Made by a program: the position numbers and the translations under genes. From IMG/VR virus record IMGVR_UViG_3300035145_002419, positions 1 to 64,000 of that record: DNA of 64,000 nt; one strand, written 5' to 3'. Positions within the stretch are counted from its first letter, which is position 1. Every line of letters begins with the position of its first letter. The notes below the pieces were generated by a model that saw only the letters and a list, made by a program, of their open reading frames with translations, had not been told where the DNA came from and did no database searches. Below, in pieces: positions 1 to 12,764 of the stretch. This DNA comes from a virus.

Positions 1-252
1 TCTTGCTGGAGTGATGATGTCTGGGGCAAAAATCGCACCGATGGTAACAAGTATGGTCCCGAGTATTATTCTGCTCGCGGTGAAGATTGCCCCCCTCGTT
101 ATGATAACAATGTGAAAGAGTTTCTTTCTAATGGTGAAGAGTTCTCCTATATTTTCAGAAATGGTGAATGGGTAGCATATGATATGCACCAGTTTGAAGA
201 CAACAAACAACCTGAAATCGTCGAAATTCCTACTGGAGCACTTGCAGCATGA
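1..252 (+). CDS. hypothetical protein, 5'-truncated by window edge
   Basis: Frame open from base 1 (SCWSDDVWGK...EIPTGALAA) to TGA 250-252, overlapping next ATG. Confidence 0.7.
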   Translation, partial: SCWSDDVWGKNRTDGNKYGPEYYSARGEDCPPRYDNNVKEFLSNGEEFSYIFRNGEWVAYDMHQFEDNKQPEIVEIPTGALAA

Positions 253-530
253 TTATTGAACGTGAACAACTTACAGTCAGTCGTAAGGAATGGGAGTGTT
301 ACAGAAGCACTCCTGACTTTGTTATCGACGAGATCAATTCTACCTTTCTTGAGATCTTACAGACAACAACTAGCCCCCGTTATGCACAAAAACGTTTTTA
401 TGATTTTGCTTATGACAGTGGTTTTGATCTGTATGGACTTAGGGATACTGAGTGTTGTATAGTGGCAACAGATATTATCAATACATATTACAAATCCAAC
501 ATTGATCGTTGGGCATATATGGAGATCTAA
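249..530 (+). CDS. hypothetical protein
   Basis: 93-aa ORF, ATGA overlap with upstream stop. Confidence 0.75.
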   Translation: MIIEREQLTVSRKEWECYRSTPDFVIDEINSTFLEILQTTTSPRYAQKRFYDFAYDSGFDLYGLRDTECCIVATDIINTYYKSNIDRWAYMEI

Positions 531-537
531 ACGAACT

Positions 538-720
538 ATGTTAGACTTGGACAAGATCACTCACGAACAAAAGGAGGCACTAGCAGAAGATTGTGAAGAC
601 TTTCTTCTGCATCGACATATACCACTCCATTCACATTCATACGATAACATCATCAACCAAGCGTTGCGTGAAGGTTATCAAATGTCCAGATTTGACCGTT
701 TCATCAACAAACCAAAATGA
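538..720 (+). CDS. hypothetical protein
   Basis: ATG at 538 (MLDLDKITHEQKE) right after upstream stop; preferred to the track start at 502. Confidence 0.65.
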   Translation: MLDLDKITHEQKEALAEDCEDFLLHRHIPLHSHSYDNIINQALREGYQMSRFDRFINKPK

Positions 721-833
721 CACAGAAAGAAATCGAAGAAACTGCGGATGAGTTCTGGAAAGAAGTTGAAAAGGAAGCAGCAAAACTTGAAGTTACTGTT
801 GATTACTACATGTTGGAATTTTTCTGTTCCTGA
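717..833 (+). CDS. small acidic hypothetical protein (38 aa)
   Basis: Hand-translated MTQKEIEETADEFWKEVEKEAAKLEVTVDYYMLEFFCS; ATGA overlap. Confidence 0.6.
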   Translation: MTQKEIEETADEFWKEVEKEAAKLEVTVDYYMLEFFCS

Positions 834-842
834 CATAACTGC

Positions 843-871
843 TTGACCAACAATAACATTTACACTAAAAT
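843..871 (+). promoter_or_regulatory. sigma70-type promoter
   Basis: TTGACC-N17-TAAAAT in an intergenic gap. Confidence 0.6.
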
Positions 872-894
872 TAAGGAGTAATTTACTGAAACCG

Positions 895-1134
895 ATGGCA
901 CCTAAGTTTTTCTACATTGTTGACCATTTTGTTCCATTTCCCACATCTGAGTATGGAGGAATTTGGAATGTTGTTGCAGAACATGATGATGAATGTTTTG
1001 ATCTAATTGTTGATGAAGATGATGGATTCAATGAAAAGTATTACAATCGCCTGCGTGAAAACATTATGAAAGCGCCAACATTTCAGTTAGCTAATGACCA
1101 TCAATCTGAGATTGTGGAGGAGTTTACTACATGA
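895..1134 (+). CDS. hypothetical protein
   Basis: 79-aa ORF downstream of promoter. Confidence 0.75.
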   Translation: MAPKFFYIVDHFVPFPTSEYGGIWNVVAEHDDECFDLIVDEDDGFNEKYYNRLRENIMKAPTFQLANDHQSEIVEEFTT

Positions 1135-1361
1135 AACCTGACATGATTGTTGGATGGAAAGAGCACATCAAAAAAGGTAATGTTTGGCGTGTTGAGTTAG
1201 AACTTTCCATGCAAGAAACGCCGGGTGAGTTTCACATATACAATGTGGAGGTTTATGTAACGGCACCTACATCAGCACTTGCAATGTATATTGTCACTAC
1301 AATGTATCCAGATTATGAATCCATTTCTGTTGATGATGAACCAGTTACAACTGCCCCCTGA
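1131..1361 (+). CDS. hypothetical protein
   Basis: 76 aa, GGAGG SD, ATGA overlap. Confidence 0.7.
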   Translation: MKPDMIVGWKEHIKKGNVWRVELELSMQETPGEFHIYNVEVYVTAPTSALAMYIVTTMYPDYESISVDDEPVTTAP

Positions 1362-1647
1362 TTTTCCACACCAACCACCCGAAGGTTATCATTATGAAGT
1401 TGAATCGTTTCGACGTAATGTTTTACGCATTTGCATTGTCAATGATGGTTCTTTCTCCTATACTAATGTTGCACCTAAATGTGTATGGGGATTTGTTAAA
1501 ACGACAGGAAAGAATGGAAGCAGTAAGAAGACTTACCATGCCCCCATCAACTTCAATAAGGTAGGAAATGTGGTAGACATTAGTGATACTCGCCCCTATA
1601 CTGCAATGCAGTTAAATCTAAATCCATTAGAAGCGGCGTTTATATGA
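1333..1647 (+). CDS. hypothetical protein
   Basis: ORF 1279-1647; likely start at MMNQLQLPPDFPH (start uncertain). Confidence 0.65.
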   Translation: MMNQLQLPPDFPHQPPEGYHYEVESFRRNVLRICIVNDGSFSYTNVAPKCVWGFVKTTGKNGSSKKTYHAPINFNKVGNVVDISDTRPYTAMQLNLNPLEAAFI

Positions 1648-1916
1648 CTCACTATATTCCACAGGTGAATGATTATGTTGCATGGAAAGAACATGAAGGT
1701 TGGGTATATTTTGCCTGTCCAGAATATATCAGTATTGAACTGAGTGTAAAGTGCAAGAATGATGAAAACATAAAACATTGTCCCCTCCATGAAAAAACAC
1801 ATTGTTTGCTTGTGTGTCAAAAGTGGTATTGGGATGAGTTAGAATACGTTAAAACTAGAAAGAATAAAAATGCGGGAAGTCTTGAAGATATGGAAGTATT
1901 CGTTAGGAAGTTTTAG
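1644..1916 (+). CDS. hypothetical protein
   Basis: 90 aa, ATGA overlap. Confidence 0.7.
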   Translation: MTHYIPQVNDYVAWKEHEGWVYFACPEYISIELSVKCKNDENIKHCPLHEKTHCLLVCQKWYWDELEYVKTRKNKNAGSLEDMEVFVRKF

Positions 1917-2106
1917 CGATGATAAAACAGAACCATATGACAACTATGTGGTTCTCATACGCAGCATTATATTTGTATCTTATCTTATTACTAATTGTTT
2001 TATTATTAGCGGAGTAATTCGTCACTGGAATGAAGTACCAAGTTATCTACCAACAACCGAAAAAGAAAGGATTTGCAACACAGAAGGCAACATTCTTCAA
2101 GATTGA
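1870..2106 (+). CDS. hypothetical membrane protein
   Basis: 78 aa with one hydrophobic segment (YVVLIRSIIFVSYLITNCFIISGVI). Confidence 0.55.
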   Translation: MREVLKIWKYSLGSFSDDKTEPYDNYVVLIRSIIFVSYLITNCFIISGVIRHWNEVPSYLPTTEKERICNTEGNILQD

Positions 2107-2176
2107 AGATGCAGTTTTTTGGGAAGAACTAATGAAGAAAAATGGTTGTAAAGACTTTGAAACTCATGTAAGTTAA
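2030..2176 (+). CDS. small hypothetical protein (48 aa)
   Basis: Hand-translated MKYQVIYQQPKKKGFATQKATFFKIEDAVFWEE...; stop directly precedes repeat copy 1. Confidence 0.6.
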   Translation: MKYQVIYQQPKKKGFATQKATFFKIEDAVFWEELMKKNGCKDFETHVS

Positions 2177-2179
2177 ATA

Positions 2180-2214
2180 TTACTCACCTCTAAAGTGTAT
2201 CAGTAACGTAAGCA
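2180..2214 (+). repeat. intergenic element copy 1 (degenerate)
   Basis: TTACTCACCTCTAAAGTGTATCAGTAACGTAAGCA. Confidence 0.85.
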
Positions 2215-2221
2215 TCACATT

Positions 2222-2359
2222 ATGGACAACTACCTGACAGAACAACAAGTCGAAGAACTTGTAAACTTTGACTACATGGAAGAAGATCTTGAAGATCTTA
2301 TCCAAGACCCAGAAAAACTTGACATCAACGATTATCTTAACTCCAACATCGACTACTGA
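2222..2359 (+). CDS. small acidic hypothetical protein (45 aa)
   Basis: MDNYLTEQQVEELVNFDYMEEDLEDLIQD...; follows repeat copy 1. Confidence 0.6.
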   Translation: MDNYLTEQQVEELVNFDYMEEDLEDLIQDPEKLDINDYLNSNIDY

Positions 2360-2360
2360 A

Positions 2361-2582
2361 ATGAATTTTCCTACCGAAACTGTCAACGTGCTTGCACACC
2401 TTCAAGAACTGCGTAAGACTTGGAAAGACCAAGATTTTCGCTTGACAAAGGATCAGCAGCAACAATATGATATGTTGATGCAAGCACGAAAGGAACGTGT
2501 TGCATGGTTCTATGAAACTGGACGTGTGCAAGTTGGACCTAAAGTGACTAAGGAAAAAGAAAAAGAACAAGAAGAAGAATGA
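2361..2582 (+). CDS. hypothetical protein
   Basis: ATG 2361 (MNFPTETVNVLAHLQELRK) one base after upstream stop; preferred to the track start at 2268. Confidence 0.7.
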   Translation: MNFPTETVNVLAHLQELRKTWKDQDFRLTKDQQQQYDMLMQARKERVAWFYETGRVQVGPKVTKEKEKEQEEE

Positions 2583-2674
2583 TACAAACACCGGGGTTTC
2601 CACTACTCTGACTTAGAAGCAGAGACCATGAAGTGGTGTAAAAGAATAATTTAAGTTGATGCAACACCCATTCC

Positions 2675-2710
2675 AATCTCCTGCTATTCTAAATAGTAGG
2701 AGATTTTTTT
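2675..2710 (+). terminator. intrinsic terminator hairpin overlapping a TAAATA late-promoter box
   Basis: AATCTCCTGCTATT-CTA-AATAGTAGGAGATT followed by a T run. Confidence 0.7.
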
Positions 2711-2719
2711 GTAGATAGA

Positions 2720-3382
2720 ATGAAGACGTACATTCAGTTTATTACTGAAGTCTATGACAAAGATGTCATGGATCGTTCACAGATCAGCAAGACTGGTGAA
2801 GGTGGACGTGTGGGTGCTGATAGAAGAAAAAGTGAACCCGAACGCCGTAGAATGAAAGCAGTTGGTGGTGGTAAAATGGTGCCAGCAGCACCATATAAGG
2901 ATCGCAAAGATATTGGAACACAAAGACAAAGAAGCACACGCGAACAACAACCCGAGCAGGAACGTGGTAGTGTTGAAGTTAAAAAGACATACGCTGATAA
3001 AGTTAAAGAACGCAGAGTTGCAGCAGCAAGAGCACGGGCAGCAGCAAAAGCATCTGGTGGTAGTGATAAAGTAGCAAAAAGTTCTGTAGCAAAAGCATCA
3101 CAAGATGTAGAAAAACAAGCAGACAAGTTGTTAGCAACCAAGAAGAAAGAAGAACCTAAAAAGTCATCAACACCACGTCGTAATTGGAAAACTGACAGTG
3201 GTGGTGGAATGACAAGAAAGGAACGTGATTCTGCTAGAAATAAAGAAAAAGGTGCAGCACTGAAGTTAAAGAAAGCAGAATTAGTTCGGGACTTCACTGA
3301 GAAGAATGGTCGCCCACCAAAGGGTGCAGAACGCACAAGACTTCTGGGACTTGCACACAAGGCAGTAAAAGCAGGCATTTAA
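2720..3382 (+). CDS. basic putative internal head protein
   Basis: 220 aa, K/R/A-rich; N-terminus MKTYIQFITE resembles the T4 IP capsid-targeting sequence MKTYQEFIAE; late box upstream. Confidence 0.6.
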   Translation: MKTYIQFITEVYDKDVMDRSQISKTGEGGRVGADRRKSEPERRRMKAVGGGKMVPAAPYKDRKDIGTQRQRSTREQQPEQERGSVEVKKTYADKVKERRVAAARARAAAKASGGSDKVAKSSVAKASQDVEKQADKLLATKKKEEPKKSSTPRRNWKTDSGGGMTRKERDSARNKEKGAALKLKKAELVRDFTEKNGRPPKGAERTRLLGLAHKAVKAGI

Positions 3383-3420
3383 AAGTTACTCACCTTGAAA
3401 GTGTATCCATAGTGTAAGCA
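3382..3420 (+). repeat. intergenic element copy 2
   Basis: AAAGTTACTCACCTTGAAAGTGTATCCATAGTGTAAGCA overlapping upstream TAA. Confidence 0.85.
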
Positions 3421-3425
3421 TCGTC

Positions 3426-3461
3426 AGCACCCTTTACAAGCGTCTGTAAGGGTGCTATTAT
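3426..3461 (+). promoter_or_regulatory. sigma70-type promoter inside an inverted repeat
   Basis: TTTACA(3433)-N17-TATTAT(3456) with extended TG; AGCACCCTTTACA/TGTAAGGGTGCT arms. Confidence 0.55.
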
Positions 3462-3483
3462 TATTTTTAGGTATCAACCCACT

Positions 3484-4680
3484 GTGACTTCATTGATTAC
3501 ACTTCGTCCGCATCAGATTCGCATCCTTGATCGTATGCGGAACTACAACAAAGGTCAGATCATTGTTCCCACTGGTGGTGGTAAAACAATGTGCATGATT
3601 CAAGATACTGCACATTCGCAACAATCTAAGTGTGGTCTTACCACTGTTGTTGTTGCTCCCCGCATACTTCTTGCTGAACAGTTGTGCAGTGAATTTCTGG
3701 AAGTAATTGATACTGCATATACGCATGTGATGCACGTTCACAGTGGTGAAACGTCACACTTCTCTACAACAAATGTAGAAAACATCAACCTGTTCGTAAA
3801 TACAGCAAGGACTGCTGGTGAGAATGTTATCATCTTCACTACATATCACTCCTTGCATCGTATTCAGGAGGCAGATGTTGAAGTCAATACGATTTACTTT
3901 GATGAAGCACATAACAGCGTGCAAAGAAACTTTTTCCCTGCTACAAAACACTTTGCTGCTGTTGCTGATCGTTGCTACTTCTTCACTGCTACTCCTAAGC
4001 ATTCTCTTACTGTTTCTAAACCTGGAATGAATGATGGATCTGTTTATGGTCAGGTCTTGGTCAATGTTCCTGCACCTGAGTTAGTTGAACAGGGTTACAT
4101 TCTCCCTCCCAAAGTTGTAGTCAAGCAACTGCCTTTGGTGAAAGGTCGTAAGGTCATGTATGCAGAGGATGCTGACAATCTGCTGGAAACTATCGATGAC
4201 AATAACATCGACAAGACTCTGATTTGTGCTCGTACCACAAAGCAGATTGTTGGTCTTATATCACAATCAGACTTCTGTGCTGAGTTGTATCAACGTGGTT
4301 ATTCTTGGATGACAATCACATCTAAGACTGGTGCAATTATTGATGGCAAGAAGGTTGACCGTGAAAAGTTCTTCGACACGTTGAACACTTGGGGTCGTGA
4401 TCCTGACAAGAAGTTTGTAGTTATTCACCACAGCATTTTGTCTGAAGGTATCAATGTGTCTGGTCTTGAGGCAGTCATTTTCATGCGTAATATGGACTAC
4501 ATTGGTATCAGTCAGTCTATCGGTCGTGTGATCCGTCTGGGTGGATCTGAGAAGACGTTTGGGTTAGTTTGTGTGCCAACATATGACTCGGTTGGTATCA
4601 GCACTGCCAAAAAAGTTCAGGCAGTTGTTGATGTCGTGTTCAATCAGGGACAACCTGCCATCAGTGAAATTCGTCGATGA
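3484..4680 (+). CDS. superfamily 2 (DEAH, ResIII-like) helicase
   Basis: LRPHQ Q-motif, PTGGGKT Walker A, DEAH, TAT, LSEGIN and QSIGRVIR motifs. Confidence 0.9.
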   Translation: MTSLITLRPHQIRILDRMRNYNKGQIIVPTGGGKTMCMIQDTAHSQQSKCGLTTVVVAPRILLAEQLCSEFLEVIDTAYTHVMHVHSGETSHFSTTNVENINLFVNTARTAGENVIIFTTYHSLHRIQEADVEVNTIYFDEAHNSVQRNFFPATKHFAAVADRCYFFTATPKHSLTVSKPGMNDGSVYGQVLVNVPAPELVEQGYILPPKVVVKQLPLVKGRKVMYAEDADNLLETIDDNNIDKTLICARTTKQIVGLISQSDFCAELYQRGYSWMTITSKTGAIIDGKKVDREKFFDTLNTWGRDPDKKFVVIHHSILSEGINVSGLEAVIFMRNMDYIGISQSIGRVIRLGGSEKTFGLVCVPTYDSVGISTAKKVQAVVDVVFNQGQPAISEIRR

Positions 4681-4681
4681 C

Positions 4682-4725
4682 AAAGTTACTCACCTCCAAA
4701 GTGTCCCAGTTGTATAAGCAACACT
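4682..4725 (+). repeat. intergenic element copy 3
   Basis: AAAGTTACTCACCTCCAAAGTGTCCCAGTTGTATAAGCAACACT. Confidence 0.9.
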
Positions 4726-4728
4726 AAA

Positions 4729-5067
4729 ATGTTCGTAACTCAAACCAAACCACAGTTCCTGACCGAAGCACTCATTGAAGTGCTGAACAATGAATGGAAA
4801 GTTCTTTCACTTGAAAATGGTCGTTCTGTTTATACTCAACTTGAGTATGAAGTGGGTCGCAAGTATATTAAAGTTTGGTCTTATCTTGTCGGTGATGAGG
4901 GTAGAATCAGGGGACGTTCTTGCTGGATGTTCGTTGATAAGAACTATGGTGAATGTTACAAACCAGCATCATACAAAGCACCTGCAAAAGGTGTCCGCTA
5001 TCTGATCACTCAACTGGCAGATAATCCCCATATTTGTGATCCTTACGGTTCGTTCCTGTATCTTTGA
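4729..5067 (+). CDS. hypothetical protein
   Basis: 112 aa; GRKYIKV...FVDK..GECYKPASYKAPAKGVRY. Confidence 0.8.
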   Translation: MFVTQTKPQFLTEALIEVLNNEWKVLSLENGRSVYTQLEYEVGRKYIKVWSYLVGDEGRIRGRSCWMFVDKNYGECYKPASYKAPAKGVRYLITQLADNPHICDPYGSFLYL

Positions 5068-5069
5068 TT

Positions 5070-5330
5070 ATGTTCGCTGACACCAATCGTCAACTTCGTA
5101 AACTTTCTATCTACAAACCAATGCAATTTCGTGTGACTGAGATTGACTTTGATTTTGATTCTGATTCCTTTGATGAAGAAGTAATGGACACCGAAGATCG
5201 TCAAGAAATTATTGATGAAGTTCTAGCAACAACTTGGCAAGCAAGTGATGCTGATGATCTTGTGGAGGAGATTACATCTGCCACAGGTTGGTGCGTTAAT
5301 TCTATCGATTACATTTACATTCTGAACTGA
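5070..5330 (+). CDS. hypothetical acidic protein
   Basis: ORF 5064-5330; start uncertain (ATG 5070 or 5121). Confidence 0.7.
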   Translation: MFADTNRQLRKLSIYKPMQFRVTEIDFDFDSDSFDEEVMDTEDRQEIIDEVLATTWQASDADDLVEEITSATGWCVNSIDYIYILN

Positions 5331-5334
5331 AACC

Positions 5335-5502
5335 ATGATTACTTCCAAAGCACAAATGATCCGCATCATGAAAAAATGTGATGGGGCAGATACATTAACC
5401 CGTGAACAAAAGTTTCAAGTCTTTGTCAACGTGTGCGATAACATGTTGAAGGAAGGTAGAATGACCAAAGCAACACATAAACGTTTCACGGAGATCTGGT
5501 GA
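5335..5502 (+). CDS. small hypothetical protein (55 aa)
   Basis: Hand-translated MITSKAQMIRIMKKCDGADTLTREQKFQVF...TEIW; fills the gap exactly. Confidence 0.65.
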   Translation: MITSKAQMIRIMKKCDGADTLTREQKFQVFVNVCDNMLKEGRMTKATHKRFTEIW

Positions 5503-5711
5503 TGATTGAAGATGTCACAAATTCACCAAAAGATTGGGAAGATTTTTGGTACTCACCTGAAAAATATGGTTCTTGGGAGTATTACAATTCAGAAAGCGAA
5601 GGGCGTGACATTCGTAACATCGACCCCAATACATTACGCTACGTTGAGTATGTTATGGGTGATAGACCTTACCCACCTGCGTTCAAGCGTGGTTCAAGAT
5701 TAAGCGATTAA
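5499..5711 (+). CDS. hypothetical protein
   Basis: 70 aa; stop abuts repeat copy 4. Confidence 0.65.
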   Translation: MMIEDVTNSPKDWEDFWYSPEKYGSWEYYNSESEGRDIRNIDPNTLRYVEYVMGDRPYPPAFKRGSRLSD

Positions 5712-5754
5712 AAAGTTACTCACCTCCAAAGTGTCCTAGTTGTATGAAAAACAC
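5712..5754 (+). repeat. intergenic element copy 4 (contains ATG 5744)
   Basis: AAAGTTACTCACCTCCAAAGTGTCCTAGTTGTATGAAAAACAC. Confidence 0.95.
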
Positions 5755-6643
5755 CCACCTCGAACACCCCGAAGACGCTATCCTAACAGGCGATCTGTCT
5801 GTTCTGGATTGGTTTTCTGAACCCGATAGTTTCATCAGCACCAAAATGGATGGTGCTCCTGCTATTGTTTGGGGCACTAATCCTGCAACTGGTAAATTCT
5901 TTGTTGGCACTAAAAGTGTCTTCAACAAAGTAAAGATCAAGATCAACGAATCACACGGTGATATTGATCGCAATCATTCTGGATCTGTTGCTGATATATT
6001 ACATCATTGTCTTGATTATCTTCCCGACTTTAAGGGAATTATTCAAGGTGATTTTATTGGTTTCGGTGGTAGTGACACTTACACGCCAAATACTATCACA
6101 TATAAGTTTCCGAATGTAGTCACTGAAGAGATCATTATTGCACCGCATACTTATTACACTGCGGACAATGATTTGCGTGATGCTGTTGCTCAACCGATGA
6201 AGTTTCGGATCACTGATACTTTCTATTGCAAGTTTGTGCAACCTAAAGTGTTGCTAACTGAAAATCGTGAAGATATTGCTGATGTCTGTGAATTTGCCCG
6301 CCAGATGTCTACATTGTGTGAATTTGTAGATGACAAGAAAGCAGCAAAGATCAAGAAGGCAATCAATACGATGATTCGCAATGGTGCTGAATTAGATGAT
6401 TTTGCAATTTCAGTTTTTGCTGACTGTGACATCAATCTAGTCAGATTGTGGAAGTTGGTTGCAACAATCAAAGCAGATTTGTTTTTGTTTATTCATTCAA
6501 CTGACGATATTGAATGTTCTATCTGTGGACATGAAACGTTTCATGAAGGTTATGTAATCACAAACAAGTATGGCATGTTCAAGGTAGTTGACCGCGAAGA
6601 ATTTTCATATGCTAACTTCAACGTTCAGAAAAGTTGGTCCTGA
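5744..6643 (+). CDS. ligase-like nucleotidyltransferase-fold protein
   Basis: 299 aa; KMDG (motif I), IQGDF (III), HEGYVI (IV), FKVVDR (V) in ligase order. Confidence 0.65.
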   Translation: MKNTHLEHPEDAILTGDLSVLDWFSEPDSFISTKMDGAPAIVWGTNPATGKFFVGTKSVFNKVKIKINESHGDIDRNHSGSVADILHHCLDYLPDFKGIIQGDFIGFGGSDTYTPNTITYKFPNVVTEEIIIAPHTYYTADNDLRDAVAQPMKFRITDTFYCKFVQPKVLLTENREDIADVCEFARQMSTLCEFVDDKKAAKIKKAINTMIRNGAELDDFAISVFADCDINLVRLWKLVATIKADLFLFIHSTDDIECSICGHETFHEGYVITNKYGMFKVVDREEFSYANFNVQKSWS

Positions 6644-6645
6644 TA

Positions 6646-6689
6646 AAAGTTACTCACCTCCAAAGTGTCCTAGTTGTATGAATGACACT
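6646..6689 (+). repeat. intergenic element copy 5 (contains ATG 6678)
   Basis: AAAGTTACTCACCTCCAAAGTGTCCTAGTTGTATGAATGACACT. Confidence 0.95.
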
Positions 6690-6839
6690 ACCTACAACGA
6701 GATCTTAAAGGTCTGGAACTACGAAACACCTGACGATTTTGCAATCTTCAGTGAACTTTACTACCAGATGTTCGGTGAGGATTTTGACATTCCTTACACA
6801 ACAGAATCCACCACTTCTTCTTTCTTTCCCTACGATTGA
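6678..6839 (+). CDS. small hypothetical protein (53 aa)
   Basis: Starts at the ATG inside repeat copy 5 (MNDTTYNEILKVW). Confidence 0.65.
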   Translation: MNDTTYNEILKVWNYETPDDFAIFSELYYQMFGEDFDIPYTTESTTSSFFPYD

Positions 6840-6841
6840 TC

Positions 6842-6973
6842 ATGCGAATCTTTTTTCTTGCCTTGTTTGTTATTCTTGGTGCTAATCTTGGCATTGAATT
6901 GTTAGATAGCAACATGACACAAATTATCAAAGATCGCAACCAAACTATTCAACGTTCTATCAACAACCTTTGA
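6842..6973 (+). CDS. small membrane-anchored protein (43 aa)
   Basis: MRIFFLALFVILGANLGIELL..., hydrophobic N-terminus. Confidence 0.6.
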   Translation: MRIFFLALFVILGANLGIELLDSNMTQIIKDRNQTIQRSINNL

Positions 6974-6975
6974 TC

Positions 6976-7239
6976 ATGAAACTGTATCATCCCGAGCACA
7001 CTATTCAGGTTGATTTCTATCCTGTCAAGTATAGTGACGGAACGATTAGTGAAAGGTTAATCTACAAGACTGTAACTTTCGGTATCAATGGACCGAACCC
7101 AGTTGTCAGCAAGCGTTACATCAACCGCAAAGAAATGAATCGCGAGATTGATAGTCGCGTTCATGGATTTGGGTATGAAATAGTTGACTTTCACACTGAT
7201 CCACAACTATACAACAGCGCACTTACTTGTGCCTGCTAA
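6976..7239 (+). CDS. hypothetical protein
   Basis: ATG 6976 (MKLYHPEHTIQVDFYPV). Confidence 0.7.
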   Translation: MKLYHPEHTIQVDFYPVKYSDGTISERLIYKTVTFGINGPNPVVSKRYINRKEMNREIDSRVHGFGYEIVDFHTDPQLYNSALTCAC

Positions 7240-7266
7240 TTATTCTAATCTTATTTTCACACTAAA

Positions 7267-7431
7267 ATGACTGACAACCTTGAAATGTTGACCCAACGTG
7301 AACAACTAATGGAGGACATTGATTCTATTGTTGAATCATACTTATGTGGTAGCAATGTTAGATCTTTTGAGGTAGAAGAATTGGTCCGCATTTTATGTGA
7401 TTCTGTTTGCAAAAACTTTCCCATTAACTAA
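7267..7431 (+). CDS. small hypothetical protein (54 aa)
   Basis: Hand-translated MTDNLEMLTQREQLMEDIDSIVE...VCKNFPIN. Confidence 0.6.
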   Translation: MTDNLEMLTQREQLMEDIDSIVESYLCGSNVRSFEVEELVRILCDSVCKNFPIN

Positions 7432-7637
7432 TGTCCTTTATTTCTTTTCCCACTGATCCTAACACCATGAATCGTTCCGAACTTCAACAAAACCTTGTCG
7501 ATTGCATTGTTGATGGTATGGATATGGAGATGCTATGTCAACTTGCATGTGATGCACTTTCCACAACTTATGATGGTTATTCTGATTCAGAATTGATGGA
7601 AGAAGTAAAAGAATACTACCCACATTTGTTGGATTAA
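7431..7637 (+). CDS. hypothetical acidic protein
   Basis: 68 aa (alternative start MNRSELQ); stop overlaps repeat copy 6. Confidence 0.7.
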   Translation: MSFISFPTDPNTMNRSELQQNLVDCIVDGMDMEMLCQLACDALSTTYDGYSDSELMEEVKEYYPHLLD

Positions 7638-7684
7638 AAGTTACTCACCTCCAAAGTGTCCTAGTTGTATGAATAACACACTTT
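7637..7684 (+). repeat. intergenic element copy 6 (contains ATG 7669)
   Basis: AAAGTTACTCACCTCCAAAGTGTCCTAGTTGTATGAATAACACACTTT. Confidence 0.95.
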
Positions 7685-7845
7685 TTTCCGAAACCAACCT
7701 GACTGAACTTCAGGATTTTATGTTCGACACTATGTTACCTGCTGGTGATTGTGTTGATTGGTTCTGCGATCGTCACGATGTTAGTGCAACTGACGACGTG
7801 ATTGATTTTGTTGTTGATGCACACTTTGCCTTCTTCGGAGAGTGA
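7669..7845 (+). CDS. small acidic hypothetical protein (58 aa)
   Basis: MNNTLFSETNLTELQDFMFD...AFFGE; starts in repeat copy 6; below the ORF-track cutoff. Confidence 0.65.
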   Translation: MNNTLFSETNLTELQDFMFDTMLPAGDCVDWFCDRHDVSATDDVIDFVVDAHFAFFGE

Positions 7846-8051
7846 TACCAATGCAAGAAACTAAGTTCGATCTTTACGGCGAGTTTATTCGCCCCAATGG
7901 TCATCAACAGTATGACATTCTGAGTTACCTTGCCGAGACAAGAGAGGAGGCAATCGCTACATGTAAGCGCCTCAATCCTTACTTCCACATTATCACAATT
8001 CGGGTAGATAATACAAAACCTGAAGTTGTAAAACTCCAATCTTTAATCTGA
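7842..8051 (+). CDS. hypothetical protein
   Basis: 69 aa (ATG at 7851 is an alternative start). Confidence 0.7.
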   Translation: MIPMQETKFDLYGEFIRPNGHQQYDILSYLAETREEAIATCKRLNPYFHIITIRVDNTKPEVVKLQSLI

Positions 8052-8056
8052 AACTA

Positions 8057-8344
8057 ATGAATTACACACTCAAAGAACTTCGCGATCGTGTCAACAAAAT
8101 GATCGAACAACAAGGTGAAGATGCACACTGTGGTGCATGGATCTACACAAAAGAAGATTGTCACTTAAAGGATGAAGATGGCAACATTGATTGTGATAGC
8201 ACAGTAAAAGATCCTGATGTTATTGAGCGCATCTTCGATGATGTTGGCAACATTGATTACATCTACCAAGTCATTCAAGAATGTGTAGATGAAGTCACTG
8301 AAGAACAATGGATGCAGTATCAACAAGAATTGTATGGTTCTTAA
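8057..8344 (+). CDS. hypothetical protein
   Basis: 95 aa; stop overlaps repeat copy 7. Confidence 0.75.
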   Translation: MNYTLKELRDRVNKMIEQQGEDAHCGAWIYTKEDCHLKDEDGNIDCDSTVKDPDVIERIFDDVGNIDYIYQVIQECVDEVTEEQWMQYQQELYGS

Positions 8345-8387
8345 AGTTACTCACCTCCAAAGTGTCCTAGTTGTATGAATAACACTT
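8343..8387 (+). repeat. intergenic element copy 7 (contains ATG 8375)
   Basis: AAAGTTACTCACCTCCAAAGTGTCCTAGTTGTATGAATAACACTT. Confidence 0.95.
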
Positions 8388-8599
8388 CCACGATGATCCA
8401 AGACGATACGATCAAAGCAAAGTCCATCCTGAAGCAGATTCAAGGATGCAAAGTTGAAGATGATAACAACAATCGATATGAGGTTGTTGATGTTAAATGC
8501 TTCAACGGTCAAGTTCGTTTCATTGGACTAAAAGATTCCGATGGCGTTATCAAGTATGCTAGCGAGAATTGCTACATGTCAATGGCAGATGTTGCCTGA
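8375..8599 (+). CDS. hypothetical protein
   Basis: 74 aa starting in repeat copy 7. Confidence 0.7.
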   Translation: MNNTSTMIQDDTIKAKSILKQIQGCKVEDDNNNRYEVVDVKCFNGQVRFIGLKDSDGVIKYASENCYMSMADVA

Positions 8600-8623
8600 T
8601 CCGTACACTTTTCTTTTTTAATC

Positions 8624-8875
8624 ATGCTTCGCAAAATCACAGTTCATTCTGAAAATTCCATTCGCTTCACACCTGAAGCAAAGGAAATCACCCAACAATT
8701 AAATGAATATCGCCGTGCAAATGGTGAGGTTTCGTTGAAAGAAATGGCAAAAATCTTTGGTCTGAGAGAGACAAATTGTGCCAACTATTACTATGGCAAG
8801 CATCACTATGTTGGTGGATATTATAATGGTGTCAATTACACACAAATGCGCAAGGGTGCATGTGTTGACCTTTGA
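8624..8875 (+). CDS. hypothetical protein, possible HTH
   Basis: 83 aa; VSLKEMAKIFGLRETNCANYY resembles a helix-turn-helix. Confidence 0.6.
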   Translation: MLRKITVHSENSIRFTPEAKEITQQLNEYRRANGEVSLKEMAKIFGLRETNCANYYYGKHHYVGGYYNGVNYTQMRKGACVDL

Positions 8876-8890
8876 ATTTATCAACGCATT

Positions 8891-8932
8891 AAAGTTACTC
8901 ACCTCCAAAGTGTCCTTATAGCATAGGGACAC
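8891..8932 (+). repeat. intergenic element copy 8
   Basis: AAAGTTACTCACCTCCAAAGTGTCCTTATAGCATAGGGACAC. Confidence 0.9.
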
Positions 8933-8967
8933 CCACCGATCCCAATTCATTTCACAAACAAACAAAC

Positions 8968-9321
8968 ATGCGTAAGATTGAAGAACAGATGATTGCTGCC
9001 ATCAAGAACAGTCAAGACTGGCAATCTGCTAACACTTCTGTTCACTTTAATGAAGAAGAAAATGCTTCTATTGTTCGCCTTCATGGACACAAGATTGCTG
9101 AGGTTGGTGATGACTATCTGACACTGTTCGATGGCGATCATCAGACAAAAACTACAAAGTCACGATTGAACGCAATTCTTGGTGAGTTCGGTTATACTTG
9201 CGGAACCAAGCGCGAGTATATTTTCCAGAAGCAATATGAATGGTTCCTTAACTTCTTCAATCCACTGTCTGATCAGATTGAAGTCATTCCTTTTGTTGAT
9301 GGCATGATGCTTCCTGGTTGA
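8968..9321 (+). CDS. hypothetical protein
   Basis: 117 aa, MRKIEEQMIAAI...TKTTKSRLNAIL. Confidence 0.8.
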   Translation: MRKIEEQMIAAIKNSQDWQSANTSVHFNEEENASIVRLHGHKIAEVGDDYLTLFDGDHQTKTTKSRLNAILGEFGYTCGTKREYIFQKQYEWFLNFFNPLSDQIEVIPFVDGMMLPG

Positions 9322-9384
9322 ATTTGTATAGTCCTGAGTATGACTTAAAACTACTCACATATCCTCACTGTTTAACATTTTTTC

Positions 9385-9519
9385 ATGTCTAGAGAGATTG
9401 CCTTTGGTCTGCTGAATCTTGCCGGTAATGGTAACGAGATTCTTTCCATTTTGGATGTTATCGAGTCGAGCGATTGCGCTGCTGATAATGACACTGAAGG
9501 AGGCGACATGATGGATTGA
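9385..9519 (+). CDS. small hypothetical protein (44 aa)
   Basis: MSREIAFGLLNLAGNGNEILSILDVIE...; followed by a terminator. Confidence 0.55.
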   Translation: MSREIAFGLLNLAGNGNEILSILDVIESSDCAADNDTEGGDMMD

Positions 9520-9530
9520 AGGTAACAACG

Positions 9531-9557
9531 AAAAGGGGTGATTTTTGCCCCTTTTTT
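9531..9557. terminator. probable bidirectional intrinsic terminator
   Basis: AAAAGGGGTG-ATTTT-TGCCCCTTTTTT, with A and T runs on both sides. Confidence 0.7.
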
Positions 9558-9638
9558 GCACAAATATATAAAGATTATGCTTTTTTTATATTAAAAAAGG
9601 TTTTTTAAATGTATTTGTGTTGTTTGTATCGATCACTG

Positions 9639-9700
9639 AAAGTATCTACAAAGGTGCCCTGAATACGCTGCAAAGTATCTACAAAGGTGCTGCAAAGGTG
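9639..9700. repeat. short direct repeats in a noncoding region
   Basis: AAAGTATCTACAAAGGTGC at 9639 and 9672; third CAAAGGTG at 9693. Confidence 0.85.
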
Positions 9701-9725
9701 TTCTGGGGTAGTGATCTTAGCGTGC

Positions 9726-9754
9726 AGTCTATCACATCCGCGCAGAAATGTCAA
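9726..9754 (-). promoter_or_regulatory. leftward sigma70-type promoter
   Basis: Minus strand TTGACA-N17-TAGACT with extended TG. Confidence 0.6.
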
Positions 9755-9828
9755 CGACCCGCTGATAGCAAATCCTGACAGATCATCGCAAAATTGATAG
9801 GACTTTCTGATAAATACAACGACTGATA

Positions 9829-9857
9829 TTGACAGTCTAACAGTCTTATTCTATACT
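9829..9857 (+). promoter_or_regulatory. sigma70-type promoter
   Basis: TTGACA-N17-TATACT. Confidence 0.75.
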
Positions 9858-9886
9858 GTAAAAGTATCACCAGCGGAGCACCAATC

Positions 9887-10060
9887 ATGTCAGCAGTCTA
9901 CTCAGAAGCACGGAAGGCGCGGTATCGTATCACCCTGGATCTGGACGTTCTTGGTGATTTTGATCCGCACAATATCAGTTGGGACAAGTTGTTTCAGTTG
10001 GAAGGTTCGGAACACTGCGAAGCATATGTAGAGGATCTATCTACACCTGACCGCTGGTAA
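9887..10060 (+). CDS. small hypothetical protein (57 aa)
   Basis: MSAVYSEARKARYRITLDLDV...TPDRW; GGAG SD and promoter upstream. Confidence 0.7.
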   Translation: MSAVYSEARKARYRITLDLDVLGDFDPHNISWDKLFQLEGSEHCEAYVEDLSTPDRW

Positions 10061-10075
10061 TCCGTCGGGTGGTTA

Positions 10076-10113
10076 TTACTCACCTCTAAACTGTTCTTAT
10101 AGTGTAAGCACAC
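10076..10113 (+). repeat. intergenic element copy 9 (degenerate)
   Basis: TTACTCACCTCTAAACTGTTCTTATAGTGTAAGCACAC. Confidence 0.85.
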
Positions 10114-10121
10114 GTTTCTGA

Positions 10122-10520
10122 ATGTCCTATCAAGTCACACAATCCTTCTACAAAGTTGACAAGCGCGGCAATCACAAACTTATCAGTGAAGGCACGGTAA
10201 TTACCAATGCTGAGTATCTGAAACTGAATGCCATTAAGCGTGCGAAATGTGAGTATGTAGAACCCACAAAACGTCAGGTCCCACTATCACAAGACGAGGC
10301 AGATGATCTGGTCTATCTGTATCTTAACGTTGCAGATCTAAATGAGATTCTGACCACGTTTCTGACAGAGTATCCAAAGCGCGTATCTGAGGGTATTGAA
10401 TGTCAGTTACGTATCATCGCTGGTTGTGATAATACGCGACCAAATGATGGTGGATTGCGTAACCCTGGCAAGGCATTATTGCGTGCTATGATCACACAAG
10501 ACCCTGCGCGGTTTGTGTGA
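10122..10520 (+). CDS. hypothetical protein
   Basis: 132-aa ORF after repeat copy 9. Confidence 0.75.
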   Translation: MSYQVTQSFYKVDKRGNHKLISEGTVITNAEYLKLNAIKRAKCEYVEPTKRQVPLSQDEADDLVYLYLNVADLNEILTTFLTEYPKRVSEGIECQLRIIAGCDNTRPNDGGLRNPGKALLRAMITQDPARFV

Positions 10521-10547
10521 TTTAGCAGTCTATGTGTGCTTCGGTGG

Positions 10548-10576
10548 TTGACACTGGGGCACGCATATGTTATGAT
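10548..10576 (+). promoter_or_regulatory. sigma70-type promoter within a hairpin
   Basis: TTGACA-N17-TATGAT with extended TG. Confidence 0.65.
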
Positions 10577-10726
10577 CAGTTTATGCGTATTTGGCAGTAT
10601 TTGTGCGGTTCGTTGTTGATGCCCGGCGGGCGTAGCGGTGCCCCGTATATAAAAAAGGTTAACTACCCTAACCTACAGAGGTGACAATTCGACCTTTCAA
10701 TATCATTCTAAAAAAAATTTTCCGCC

Positions 10727-10867
10727 ATGAAAAAATCACCTTATTGGTCTTTTTGGAAAGTAGTATTTGCTGGGTGGTTAATCAGATATCCAGGTAAATT
10801 TATTCGCCCCCTTGGAGTAGTGATTGGGTTTGCAATAGTGCTGATATATAATGCGTTATCAAATTAG
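10727..10867 (+). CDS. small membrane protein (46 aa)
   Basis: MKKSPYWSFWKVVFAGWLIRYPGKFIRPLGVVIGFAIVLIYNALSN. Confidence 0.55.
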   Translation: MKKSPYWSFWKVVFAGWLIRYPGKFIRPLGVVIGFAIVLIYNALSN

Positions 10868-10872
10868 GAGAT

Positions 10873-11094
10873 ATGACAAAAAATTCCGTAGAAAAAATTC
10901 AACCTACAAAGGTTTATCACATCTATGCAAAGGATGAATGTTTATATAATAATCTAAGTGAAAGTCAATTTAATAATAAATGGGAAACCCTCAAAGGAAT
11001 GGTTGGTTTAATGAAAACTGATTATGAAATTGAGGATTTGTCATATGAAGAGGTAGAGTTAATACGACATACCACAGATGAACATTCATATTGA
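10873..11094 (+). CDS. hypothetical protein
   Basis: 73 aa, AGGAG SD. Confidence 0.75.
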   Translation: MTKNSVEKIQPTKVYHIYAKDECLYNNLSESQFNNKWETLKGMVGLMKTDYEIEDLSYEEVELIRHTTDEHSY

Positions 11095-11119
11095 CAAGGT
11101 ATAGATAGACTGTTAAAAT
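11091..11119 (+). promoter_or_regulatory. sigma70-type promoter
   Basis: TTGACA-N17-TAAAAT with extended TG. Confidence 0.7.
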
Positions 11120-11142
11120 TGAACTGAAAGTTATTTTCAACT

Positions 11143-11910
11143 ATGGCAAAAGGATTTACTGTTAAAGCTGCTGCACCTAAGAAGAAGGAAGCAGAGTATG
11201 ATATTGATGCAATCAAAGCACGAATGAAAGGAAAGACAATTGTATTTTGTCTTCCAGGTCGTGGATGTAGTTTTACATTTCTGAAGAACTTTGTACAACT
11301 GTGCTTTGATATGGTACAGAATGGAATGAGTATTCAGATCAGTCAAGATTATTCTTCTATGGTCAACTTTGCACGTTGTAAAGTATTGGGTGCAAATGTT
11401 CTTCGTGGACCTAAGCAAGTACCTTGGGATGGAAAACTTCCATATGATTATCAACTGTGGATTGATAGTGACATTGTGTTTAACACAGAAAAGTTCTGGC
11501 AACTGTGCGATCTAGCAGTTCCTGCAGAAGGTGAGGAACGTCCGATCAGTGCTGGATGGTATGCAACAGAAGATGGGCACACAACCTCAGTAGCACACTG
11601 GTTGGAAGAAGATGACTTCCGTCGTAATGGTGGTGTGATGAATCATGAGACTGTTGAATCCATCAGTAAGCGTAAGAAACCCTTTACAGTTGACTACACA
11701 GGATTTGGATGGGTATTGATTAAGAAGGGTGTATTTGAAGATCTTGAATACCCTTGGTTTGCACCGAAGATGCAAGTATTTGAATCTGGTGCTGTTCAGG
11801 ACATGTGTGGTGAAGATGTATCATTCTGTCTTGATGCAAAAGAAGAAGGCTTTGAAATCTGGTGTGACCCTAAGATTCGTGTGGGTCACGAAAAGACTCG
11901 GGTAATTTGA
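11143..11910 (+). CDS. GT-A-fold glycosyltransferase-like protein
   Basis: LWIDSDIVF (DxD), TGFGWVLI, GEDVSFC and VGHEK motifs typical of GT2-like proteins. Confidence 0.75.
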   Translation: MAKGFTVKAAAPKKKEAEYDIDAIKARMKGKTIVFCLPGRGCSFTFLKNFVQLCFDMVQNGMSIQISQDYSSMVNFARCKVLGANVLRGPKQVPWDGKLPYDYQLWIDSDIVFNTEKFWQLCDLAVPAEGEERPISAGWYATEDGHTTSVAHWLEEDDFRRNGGVMNHETVESISKRKKPFTVDYTGFGWVLIKKGVFEDLEYPWFAPKMQVFESGAVQDMCGEDVSFCLDAKEEGFEIWCDPKIRVGHEKTRVI

Positions 11911-12050
11911 CAACACTACACATCATATGCACTAAGTGTGGTGGTAAATGTTGTAAGCACTGTCATAAAGGATGGCAGTGCATGGGACCAAATTGTAAAA
12001 AATGTAAAATCTTTGGAGAACTAAAACATGGCAATGATGAAAGGCGGTAG
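11907..12050 (+). CDS. Cys/His-rich miniprotein (47 aa)
   Basis: TTG start overlapping upstream TGA; ICTKCGGKCCKHCHKGWQCMGPNCKKC. Confidence 0.55.
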   Translation: MTTLHIICTKCGGKCCKHCHKGWQCMGPNCKKCKIFGELKHGNDERR

Positions 12051-12162
12051 TTACATTCCCGGAAAACCGAAGAAAACTCGACAGGGAAGTTCTCAACACA
12101 CGCTTCTCTCGGCAACCTCTCGTAATAAAAAGAAAAAGAAATATCGTGGTCAAGGTAGGTGA
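12028..12162 (+). CDS. small basic protein (44 aa)
   Basis: GGAG SD; MAMMKGGSYIPGKPKKTRQG...RNKKKKKYRGQGR. Confidence 0.7.
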   Translation: MAMMKGGSYIPGKPKKTRQGSSQHTLLSATSRNKKKKKYRGQGR

Positions 12163-12764
12163 CTGAGTTTCATCCATTGTTTCCTTGCGTAGTATCAGAA
12201 CATAAACTTAATTTTGATACTGATATTATCAAGGAAGAATGTTATAAAAGAAAACAGTTAGAACTTACTGGTGTATCAAGTCAAGGTAAACATCCAACAT
12301 CTAATCGTGGTGGGTGGCAATCCAGTCCATTTTTTAAAGATACTGATTCATTCTTTGGCCCTTTATTACATGCTATTGAAGAACATTGTTTAGATTACAT
12401 TTATGAAATAGTATCAATACAAGATTGTTTTTTACATAATGCTTGGATTAATATTAATTCAAAAGGAAATTATAATTTTCCACATGATCATCCTGGATCT
12501 ATTGTATCAGGAGTTTATTATGTAAGACTACCTGAAAATAGTGGTAAATTAGTATTTGAAAATCCTTCAGGTAAATTACTTGCAAGTTATTGGAGTGTAA
12601 TGCGAAGTCCAAATGAATGGAATAGGGCAAATTCTGAAGTATGGTCATTAGACTCAAGTGAAGACACACTTTTAATTTTTCCATCATGGTTAGATCATTA
12701 TGTGGAAACAAATAAAAGTGATGAAGATCGAATATCTATTTCATTTAATGTTTGTGCTAGATAA
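12159..12764 (+). CDS. 2OG-Fe(II) oxygenase-like protein
   Basis: W.NIN, HDHP, SGVYYV, FPSWLDHYV and RISISFN motifs. Confidence 0.85.
   Translation: MTEFHPLFPCVVSEHKLNFDTDIIKEECYKRKQLELTGVSSQGKHPTSNRGGWQSSPFFKDTDSFFGPLLHAIEEHCLDYIYEIVSIQDCFLHNAWININSKGNYNFPHDHPGSIVSGVYYVRLPENSGKLVFENPSGKLLASYWSVMRSPNEWNRANSEVWSLDSSEDTLLIFPSWLDHYVETNKSDEDRISISFNVCAR

Follow-up and report, generated by a model that had tools for sequence, protein, structure and literature searches.

Organization of the repeat array

The window analyzed here comprises the first 64 kb (64,000 nucleotides) of the 75,984-bp IMG/VR contig IMGVR_UViG_3300035145_002419, which is estimated to be 39% complete and originates from an uncultured T4-like cyanomyovirus, with the Synechococcus phages SynMITS9220M01, Bellamy and S-SM2 as its nearest isolates. 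Between positions 2180 and 10113 it contains nine copies of the repeat unit TTACTCACCTnnAAAnTGT, all in one orientation. The array is located in a small-gene region 5′ of the baseplate module, and the sequence 3′ of 12 kb includes genes of the gp6, gp8, neck, terminase, portal, scaffold and gp23 types together with UvsW. The array region is syntenic with Syn9 gp55-gp93 and with SynMITS9220M01 genes 037-076, and because of the synteny with Syn9 we regard it as presumably early.

An exact-match search with the core TTACTCACCTNNAAANTGT returned nine sites, all on the + strand, at 2180, 3386, 4686, 5716, 6650, 7641, 8347, 8895 and 10076, the same starts that a preliminary description of this DNA had listed. 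Its statement that the copies are co-oriented, with none past 10.2 kb, also holds: no further copy with one mismatch or fewer is present in the window or in the whole record, and shuffled sequence yields about 1.4 matches even at three mismatches. No difference separates copies 4-7 within the 31-nt query or within approximately 37 nt of the repeat-family alignment, in agreement with the 37 bp given before. The stop codon of the upstream open reading frame (ORF) adjoins the element in copies 1-7, at a measured distance of 3-6 nt (0-4 bp in the preliminary description), and is farther upstream in copy 8 (19 nt) and copy 9 (15 nt). The copies delimit eight blocks of one to five ORFs, as described earlier, all on the + strand and with a known function for few of the ORFs.

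Element positions are counted from the first T of TTACTCACC, the box of copy 1 (2180..2219), which is followed by the core TCTAAAGTGT and the hexamer TAACGT; the ATG that follows, at 2222, begins the first block (2222-3382). Copy 2 (3386..3425) precedes the block formed by the DEAD/ResIII helicase gene (3484-4680), with a long leader of 98 nt. This leader contains a hairpin with a T-rich tail (3431-3461) overlapping a sigma-70-like TTTACA-17-TATTAT site, which may represent a second, host-like promoter or an attenuator. Copy 3 (4686..4725) is followed by the block 4729-5711, where the ATG of the DUF7717 gene is found at 4729, 15 nt past the invariant purine. In the next four copies, the following ORF starts with an ATG that lies at element positions 29-31: copy 4 (5716..5755) supplies the start codon of the DUF6267 gene (5744-6643), copy 5 (6650..6689) has its ATG at 6678 (block 6678-7637), copy 6 (7641..7680) at 7669 (block 7669-8344), and copy 7 (8347..8386) at 8375 (block 8375-8875), with a second in-frame ATG 18 nt further. 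Copy 8 (8895..8934) has the hexamer TAGCAT and a 73-nt leader to the Kyano_Gp96-family gene 8968-9321, the first of the block 8968-10060. Copy 9 (10076..10115) is the last of the array, with an ATG at 10122.

The closest relative, locus L004, has an extra copy about 2.3 kb upstream of the position of copy 1, and the array is therefore cut by the left end of the contig. A degenerate core match with two mismatches (GTACTCACCTGAAAAATAT, 5549-5567) is present within the ORF 5499-5711 and is either a chance match or a decayed copy. The last block includes a gap of about 560 bp without a convincing + strand ORF (9321-9887), in which a sigma-70-like site lies on the minus strand (9754-9726).

Two near-consensus sigma-70-type sites are found on the + strand just 3′ of the array, at 10548-10576 (TTGACA-17-TATGAT) and 11091-11119 (TTGACA-17-TAAAAT). 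The sigma-70-type site 5′ of the gene 11143-11910 is conserved in S-SM2 and Bellamy (ttgaca...tataat). The type of signal switches at the edge of the array, before this conserved gene and the baseplate module.

A universal core with a genome-specific box

The element is composed of a 9-nt box (positions 1-9), the core CTCT-AAAGTGT (10-19), a variable, pyrimidine-rich stretch (20-24) and the hexamer TAGTRT (25-30), which is followed by RAG.A. Related loci, 80 of them around the neighbouring helicase gene plus isolate regions, were searched with a matrix that covers only the 3′ part of the element and leaves positions 1-7 outside. This search produced 149 forward and 0 reverse matches in 905 kb of 83 loci. 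Conservation across all genomes was seen in the 155 unique elements at positions 8-19 (CC-TCT-AAAGTGT) and at 25-30 (T-A-G-T-R-T). Within a locus, the information content of positions 1-9 is 1.85-2.0 bits, whereas across loci it falls to 0.1-1.0 bit at positions 1-7, the two cytosines at positions 8-9 remaining conserved.

A scan of IMG/VR with the universal core recovered at least 120 stretches, and the census set, restricted to contigs with at least three elements, comprises at least 750 elements on at least 115 contigs. The box is uniform in each genome and different between genomes: 92% of the census elements are within one mismatch of the dominant 8-nt box of their own contig, and there are at least 28 dominant boxes, including TACTCACC, CTGAAGCC, TTGGATCC, TAGTAACC, AGCTCACC, CTGTAGCC, GCCGGCCC and GGGGGTCG. 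SynMITS9220M01 has the same box as the window, in 13 copies, and the family is also carried by the isolates S-SM2 (box GGGGGGTCG), P-TIM68 (box TTAGTTACC) and S-B05. The genome and matrix scans proposed in the preliminary description revealed copies that are confined to the array in the window, strictly oriented, and members of a large family in related phages. The repeats are an ordinary organizing signal of the small-gene region in this phage group.

Orthologous genes, such as the DUF6267 gene, bear the box of the genome in which they reside. On a tree of the neighbouring helicase (a quick tree only), the box classes are interleaved under well-supported branches, with at least four changes required for TACTCACC, and the box is therefore not simply inherited together with the neighbouring gene; the box labels are nonetheless more clustered than shuffled labels. 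Seven loci with a uniform box (L098, L118, L152, L166, L173, L184 and L193) contain one or two elements with the exact box of another class, for example TTACTCACC inside AGCTCACC or CTGGGCCC genomes. These elements may mark recently imported blocks, as single foreign boxes are expected if blocks arrive with the promoter of the donor.

Fit of the element to stop and start codons

The element fits closely between neighbouring genes throughout the family. The stop codon of the upstream ORF is located no more than 12 nt from position 1 in 479 of 617 elements, and 247 of 635 unique elements (39%) have an ATG at positions 29-31. All but 11 of these built-in ATGs (236/247) open an ORF of at least 30 amino acids, although only about a third would be in frame by chance, and 46 of 47 open an ORF in an earlier independent set. 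The remaining starts cluster 15-25 nt past position 29, with hardly any ATG in between, and no Shine-Dalgarno sequence was found at the element-adjacent starts of the 635-element set. Position 29 was limited to a purine by the search pattern in this large set; in the matrix-based set it is A in 74 and G in 81 of the 155 elements.

The Pfam profile of DUF6267 begins at residue 3 of ORF 5744, indicating that the built-in ATG of copy 4 is the real start. This protein (5744-6643) corresponds to PHROG 455, its N-terminus MKNTH(L/I)(E/Q)H is conserved, and its start codon is within the element in at least five box classes. The unrelated proteins that start at built-in ATGs (5744, 6678, 7669 and 8375) share an M-x-x-T N-terminus (MKNT, MNDT, MNNT, MSTT and others). 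This N-terminus is forced on them by the partial conservation of a GTGT...ACAC dyad (A35, C36, A38, C39); because these positions are conserved into the coding sequence, a constraint at the DNA or RNA level overrides coding. As a hairpin, the dyad was rejected, since no covariation was seen by eye and its stability is no better than that of shuffles. For annotation, these results mean that many small cyanophage genes begin at an ATG within the repeat.

The repeat as a putative early promoter

The preliminary description had viewed the repeat as an expression signal, and its strict orientation, stop-to-start placement and conservation in the family support this role well, if indirectly, as does its lack of resemblance to sigma-70 promoters. 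A scan of positions 1-12500 detected 46 sigma-70-like sites, none coinciding with an element, and the hexamers at element positions 1-6 or 2-7 (TTACTC/TACTCA) match TTGACA at no more than two of six positions. We propose that the element heads the transcription units of the hyperplastic, presumed early small-gene region in many T4-like cyanophages. RNA polymerase would be guided to it by a reader of the genome-specific box, without the usual sigma-70 contact at -35, and transcription would begin either at the purine at position 29 or 5-8 nt past the TAGTRT hexamer. No terminator-like sites were found at any copy, and therefore transcripts are proposed to read through into the next blocks.

Initiation at position 29 would generate a leaderless mRNA where the purine is the A of the ATG, and elsewhere leaders of 15-25 nt without a Shine-Dalgarno sequence. 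Such a start would explain the built-in in-frame ATG and the N-terminus of DUF6267. The 15-25-nt leaders resemble those inferred for P-TIM40 (22-28 nt from TATAAT to ATG), and a start at position 29 retains the conserved AAGGA of P-TIM68 (positions 35-39) in the transcript. Alternatively, T25 (151 of the 155 elements), A26 (131) and T30 (146) could represent the bases of a -10 hexamer, with the private box lying on the -35 region like a MotA box. Conserved purines follow 5-8 nt downstream of the hexamer, at A35 (120/155, 77%) and A38 (95/155, 61%). With a start past the hexamer, the adjacent gene would be out of reach for 39% of the elements, and its translation would need read-through RNA. 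The two start sites appear about equally probable, with a slight preference for the leaderless one.

Contigs that bridge copies 1, 5 and 9 are present among the Logan contigs of one small metatranscriptome, in which DNA carry-over is possible; they make read-through plausible. They would also be expected if the region were transcribed as a long polycistronic RNA from few promoters, with the repeat acting on the RNA as a processing or translation-initiation signal, for example as a cleavage site at which cutting would leave a 5′ end at position 29 and release mRNAs that are leaderless or have a short leader. The ATG fixed at one element position, nearly always in frame, and the lack of a Shine-Dalgarno sequence would suit such a signal. 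On the other hand, when the nine copies and their flanks were folded as DNA, seven gave z-scores from +1.65 to -0.23, no better than shuffles, and a search of the element against Rfam matched no family. Furthermore, the T-A...T pattern and the A/T-rich stretch suit promoter melting, and we know of no ribonuclease counterpart for a 28-nt conserved block with a genome-specific box 5′ of the cut. Thus, we consider an RNA-level signal very unlikely.

The fold z-scores of copies 8 and 9 are -2.2 and -1.7, and copy 8 is the sole copy with a clearly stable hairpin (GTGTCC...GGACAC). With seven of the nine copies folding like shuffles, the stem-loop or RNA-structure reading was discarded. An anti-Shine-Dalgarno role for CACCTCC, which equals the 3′ end of 16S rRNA, was also rejected, because only CCTCY is common to the other boxes and no downstream pairing was found.

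Relationship to known phage promoter repeats

Many related loci, as well as Syn9, Bellamy and P-TIM40, have a second type of repeat in the same region. It consists of AAGTGKCAC or a TGTGACA...TGTCACA dyad, often a stem-loop, followed by a TATAAT-like hexamer, with the ATG 17-28 nt past the hexamer; in Syn9 and Bellamy, AGAGTCAAAGGAA, which contains a Shine-Dalgarno sequence, comes after the hexamer. Repeats of this type were observed at 43-54 kb in L003 (Syn9), at 44-55.5 kb in L208 (P-TIM40) and in L085 (Bellamy), where the dyad reads TGTGACA-N10-TGTCACA or AAGTGGCAC and often forms a G/C stem-loop with a T run. A non-sigma-70 early-gene element of the T4-like cyanophages Syn9 and P-TIM40 was reportedly described by Doron et al. 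in 2016 (ISME J) and is probably of the dyad/TATAAT type. The element of the window would then be a related but distinct variant of the published one. The preliminary description had raised the possibility that the two are the same motif, which appears not to be the case: Syn9 has no match at fewer than three mismatches, and the repeats found in Syn9 and P-TIM40 are of the dyad/TATAAT type.

Both types are non-sigma-70-type repeats 5′ of small genes, next to the same helicase, in Kyanoviridae; both have AGTGTC and a TA-rich hexamer, and each gives way to host-like sigma-70 sites where the region ends. The type found in the window differs in being about 10 nt more compact, in lacking both a dyad at -50 and a Shine-Dalgarno sequence, and in its private box. 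It is a functional counterpart of the reported cyanophage early element, with a motif other than that of Syn9 or P-TIM40.

Promoter cassettes known as PeSLs (promoter-early stem-loops) are found in the T4-type phages RB49/phi1, T4/PST and KVP40/nt-1 (Arbiol 2010, PMC2839356; Comeau 2014, PMC4122927). They combine a near-consensus sigma-70 promoter (TTGACA-N17-TATAAT) with a stem-loop terminator and a Shine-Dalgarno sequence, and mini-circles have been demonstrated for them; the PeSL papers do not cover cyanophages (PMC2839356, PMC4122927). Like PeSLs, the repeats of the window family are intergenic units (about 40-100 bp) of hyperplastic regions that extend from the A/T-rich upstream stop to the next start before ORFans, and they are linked to insertion, deletion and replacement of the flanked genes, including cases with two units around a gene in one phage and a single unit in the other. 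Unlike PeSLs, they have no sigma-70 consensus, stem-loop or Shine-Dalgarno sequence, and each possesses a box specific to its genome and, in many cases, the start codon as well. Since the sigma-70 consensus and the stem-loop are both absent, the element is not a PeSL, even if its design works as these cassettes do.

T4 middle promoters depend on MotA and AsiA and have a -10 hexamer with a MotA box in place of the -35 element. If TAGTRT is a -10 hexamer, the window element would resemble them in having a non-sigma box that replaces the -35 element and a phage factor as its reader; the MotA box is constant, whereas the box of the window family differs between genomes. Cyanomyoviruses have neither motA nor asiA (PMC2984593).

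An analogy in the pattern of variation is provided by the T7-group phages (T7, T3, SP6 and K11), whose promoters are uniform in each genome and have a short specificity block that differs between phages. The window family shares with them the uniformity per genome, a specificity block next to a shared core, and a TATA sequence just before the start; a CTATAG subset resembles the SP6 core at 11 of 14 positions when aligned by eye. The specificity block of the window family is located further upstream, and no T7-type polymerase (PF00940) was detected in the contig or in the complete genomes of SynMITS9220M01, S-SM2 and P-TIM68, a weak test given that the control genomes also lacked it.

Gene turnover at the repeats

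Because the copies share 20-40 bp, they could act as preferred, though not exclusive, crossover points. Exchange between two copies would delete, insert or permute whole blocks of promoter plus genes, and the same exchanges would keep the box uniform within a genome. An integron-like system was rejected, since no integrase is present and the elements resemble promoters that point the same way as the genes.

In more distant relatives with the same box, blocks of homology start at position 1 of one element and end within the next. The order of the blocks is permuted in L007 and L009, where the helicase block precedes the block that is upstream of the helicase in the window and DUF7717 follows DUF6267. 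An element-to-element block of L007 is absent in its close relative L009, and L032 lacks the block of four genes that copies 3 and 4 enclose in the window (4729-5711), having a single element between the helicase and DUF6267. Metagenome contigs revealed further joints of this kind, one linking copy 1 to the sequence after copy 2 via a different 3′ half, one with gene 4729 after copy 7, and another with an element directly 5′ of gene 8624; other metagenome contigs join at plain gene boundaries. At the nine element junctions, 83% of observations showed a loss of gene adjacency, versus 54% at the other 28 junctions (Mann-Whitney p = 0.03 at the junction level).

Insertions and deletions (indels) were counted over 25 element-bearing loci as 109 unique deletion-type differences, which are not phylogenetically independent. 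Among observable boundary pairs, such differences occurred in 14 of the 138 with an element at both ends (10.1%), compared to 47 of the 1369 with an element at neither end (3.4%; odds ratio 3.2, p = 8e-4). Pairs with only the right end at an element were affected in 39 of 537 cases (7.3%), and those with only the left end in 9 of 357 (2.5%).

Taken together, the sequence comparisons suggest that the repeats are compact, co-oriented promoters of the early region that double as preferred, non-exclusive crossover points, a reading to which we assign a probability of approximately 0.55. Several results weigh against it. The -10-like bases T25 A26...T30 place the start past the built-in ATG, whereas this ATG and the N-terminus of DUF6267 imply that transcription begins no later than position 29 or that read-through RNA is translated, so the start-site arguments conflict. 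The RNA data consist of the metatranscriptome contigs and inform on coverage and bridging only. No factor that reads the box was identified, and no protein of the region tracks the box class. With respect to recombination, 43% of the events (47/109) involve no element, and the lack of phylogenetic independence applies to the whole count. The association between elements and indels is also inflated, because promoters sit at module edges anyway. Finally, none of the five indels that distinguish the window from its closest relative L004 (83, 134, 187, 528 and 263 nt, at 94-96% nucleotide identity) extends from repeat to repeat. They remove single genes or parts of genes and lie at gene boundaries or inside genes; one of them takes in copy 7 and ends at its ATG.

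The L004 indels and the events without an element would be readily accommodated if the repeats were promoters only, with the link to indels a by-product of unit edges and the uniform box maintained by selection for one reader. Positions 20-24 and 31-40 vary between copies whose box and core are uniform, which also speaks against wholesale gene conversion. However, an edge effect does not predict the threefold enrichment of differences with both ends at elements, or the asymmetry between right and left ends. Nor does it account for the L007/L009 pair and the metagenome run X4, which differ exactly from element to element, or for orthologous genes carrying the box of the resident genome regardless of their own phylogeny. 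We therefore regard the promoter-only explanation as possible but rather unlikely.

The preliminary description had proposed that the repeats are recombination junctions and that breakpoints would fall on them when relatives are aligned. The enrichment over the 25 loci, the permuted gene order and the joints within elements support a bias toward such breakpoints, and the L004 comparison and the events without an element do not follow it. The elements thus appear to be favoured seams, a role that is partly supported, and are not required for gene turnover.

A basic protein as a candidate reader of the box

The first block of the array contains a gene for a K/R-rich protein of 220 amino acids (2720-3382), preceded by a terminator hairpin of 14 bp with a T tail (2675-2705). 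The protein begins with MKTYIQFITE, which we take to resemble the capsid-targeting leader of T4 internal proteins, and it matched no Pfam or PHROG family. Its homologues are present in 17 of 24 loci with the element family and in none of 59 loci without it; among isolates they are found only in S-B05, RN05-S, RB11-B, SynMITS9220M01, S-SM2 and P-TIM68. The similarity between these homologues does not track the box class.

The co-occurrence of this capsid-targeted-looking protein with the element family might also be expected if the repeats were selfish or structural, that is, REP- or MITE-like sequences or sites to which a packaged DNA-binding protein attaches, and played no part in gene expression. 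The genome-specific box would then parallel REP elements matched to their own transposase, and single foreign boxes would fit as well. This explanation appears highly improbable in view of the strict orientation, the stop-to-start spacing, the built-in start codon and the restriction to one region of small co-oriented genes. In addition, no terminal inverted repeats, target duplications or transposase were found, and the similarity of the basic protein does not follow the box class.

Within the promoter reading, we tentatively propose, as an unlikely extension, that the 9-nt box serves as an address code whose reader is a phage protein that co-evolves with it and is delivered together with the DNA, with leaderless mRNAs starting at the built-in ATG. 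The basic protein 2720-3382, if expressed late and, as its sequence suggests, targeted to the capsid, is a candidate for this reader. If this is true, T4-like cyanophages would fall into mutually orthogonal classes of early promoters, and co-infecting phages of different classes would be unable to cross-activate each other's early genes. It would also explain how host polymerase is captured by phages without Alt, Mod, MotA and AsiA.

Implications for T4-like cyanophages

T4-like cyanophages are among the most abundant marine viruses. To our knowledge, they have none of the T4 proteins by which the host polymerase is redirected, and early signals unlike host promoters have been reported for them. 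Promoter-repeat cassettes are known from T4-like phages; what sets the present family apart from PeSLs is its private box, the start codon within the repeat and the lack of a Shine-Dalgarno sequence. The present results carry the PeSL idea over to cyanophages in a form that is weaker but measured, in which promoters serve as exchange seams by bias and not by rule. With its universal core, fixed purine and private box (at least 28 box types on at least 115 contigs), this family of elements provides a sharply defined handle on how T4-like cyanophages start their infection programme, and the cultured carriers SynMITS9220M01, S-SM2, P-TIM68 and S-B05 make these ideas testable at the bench.

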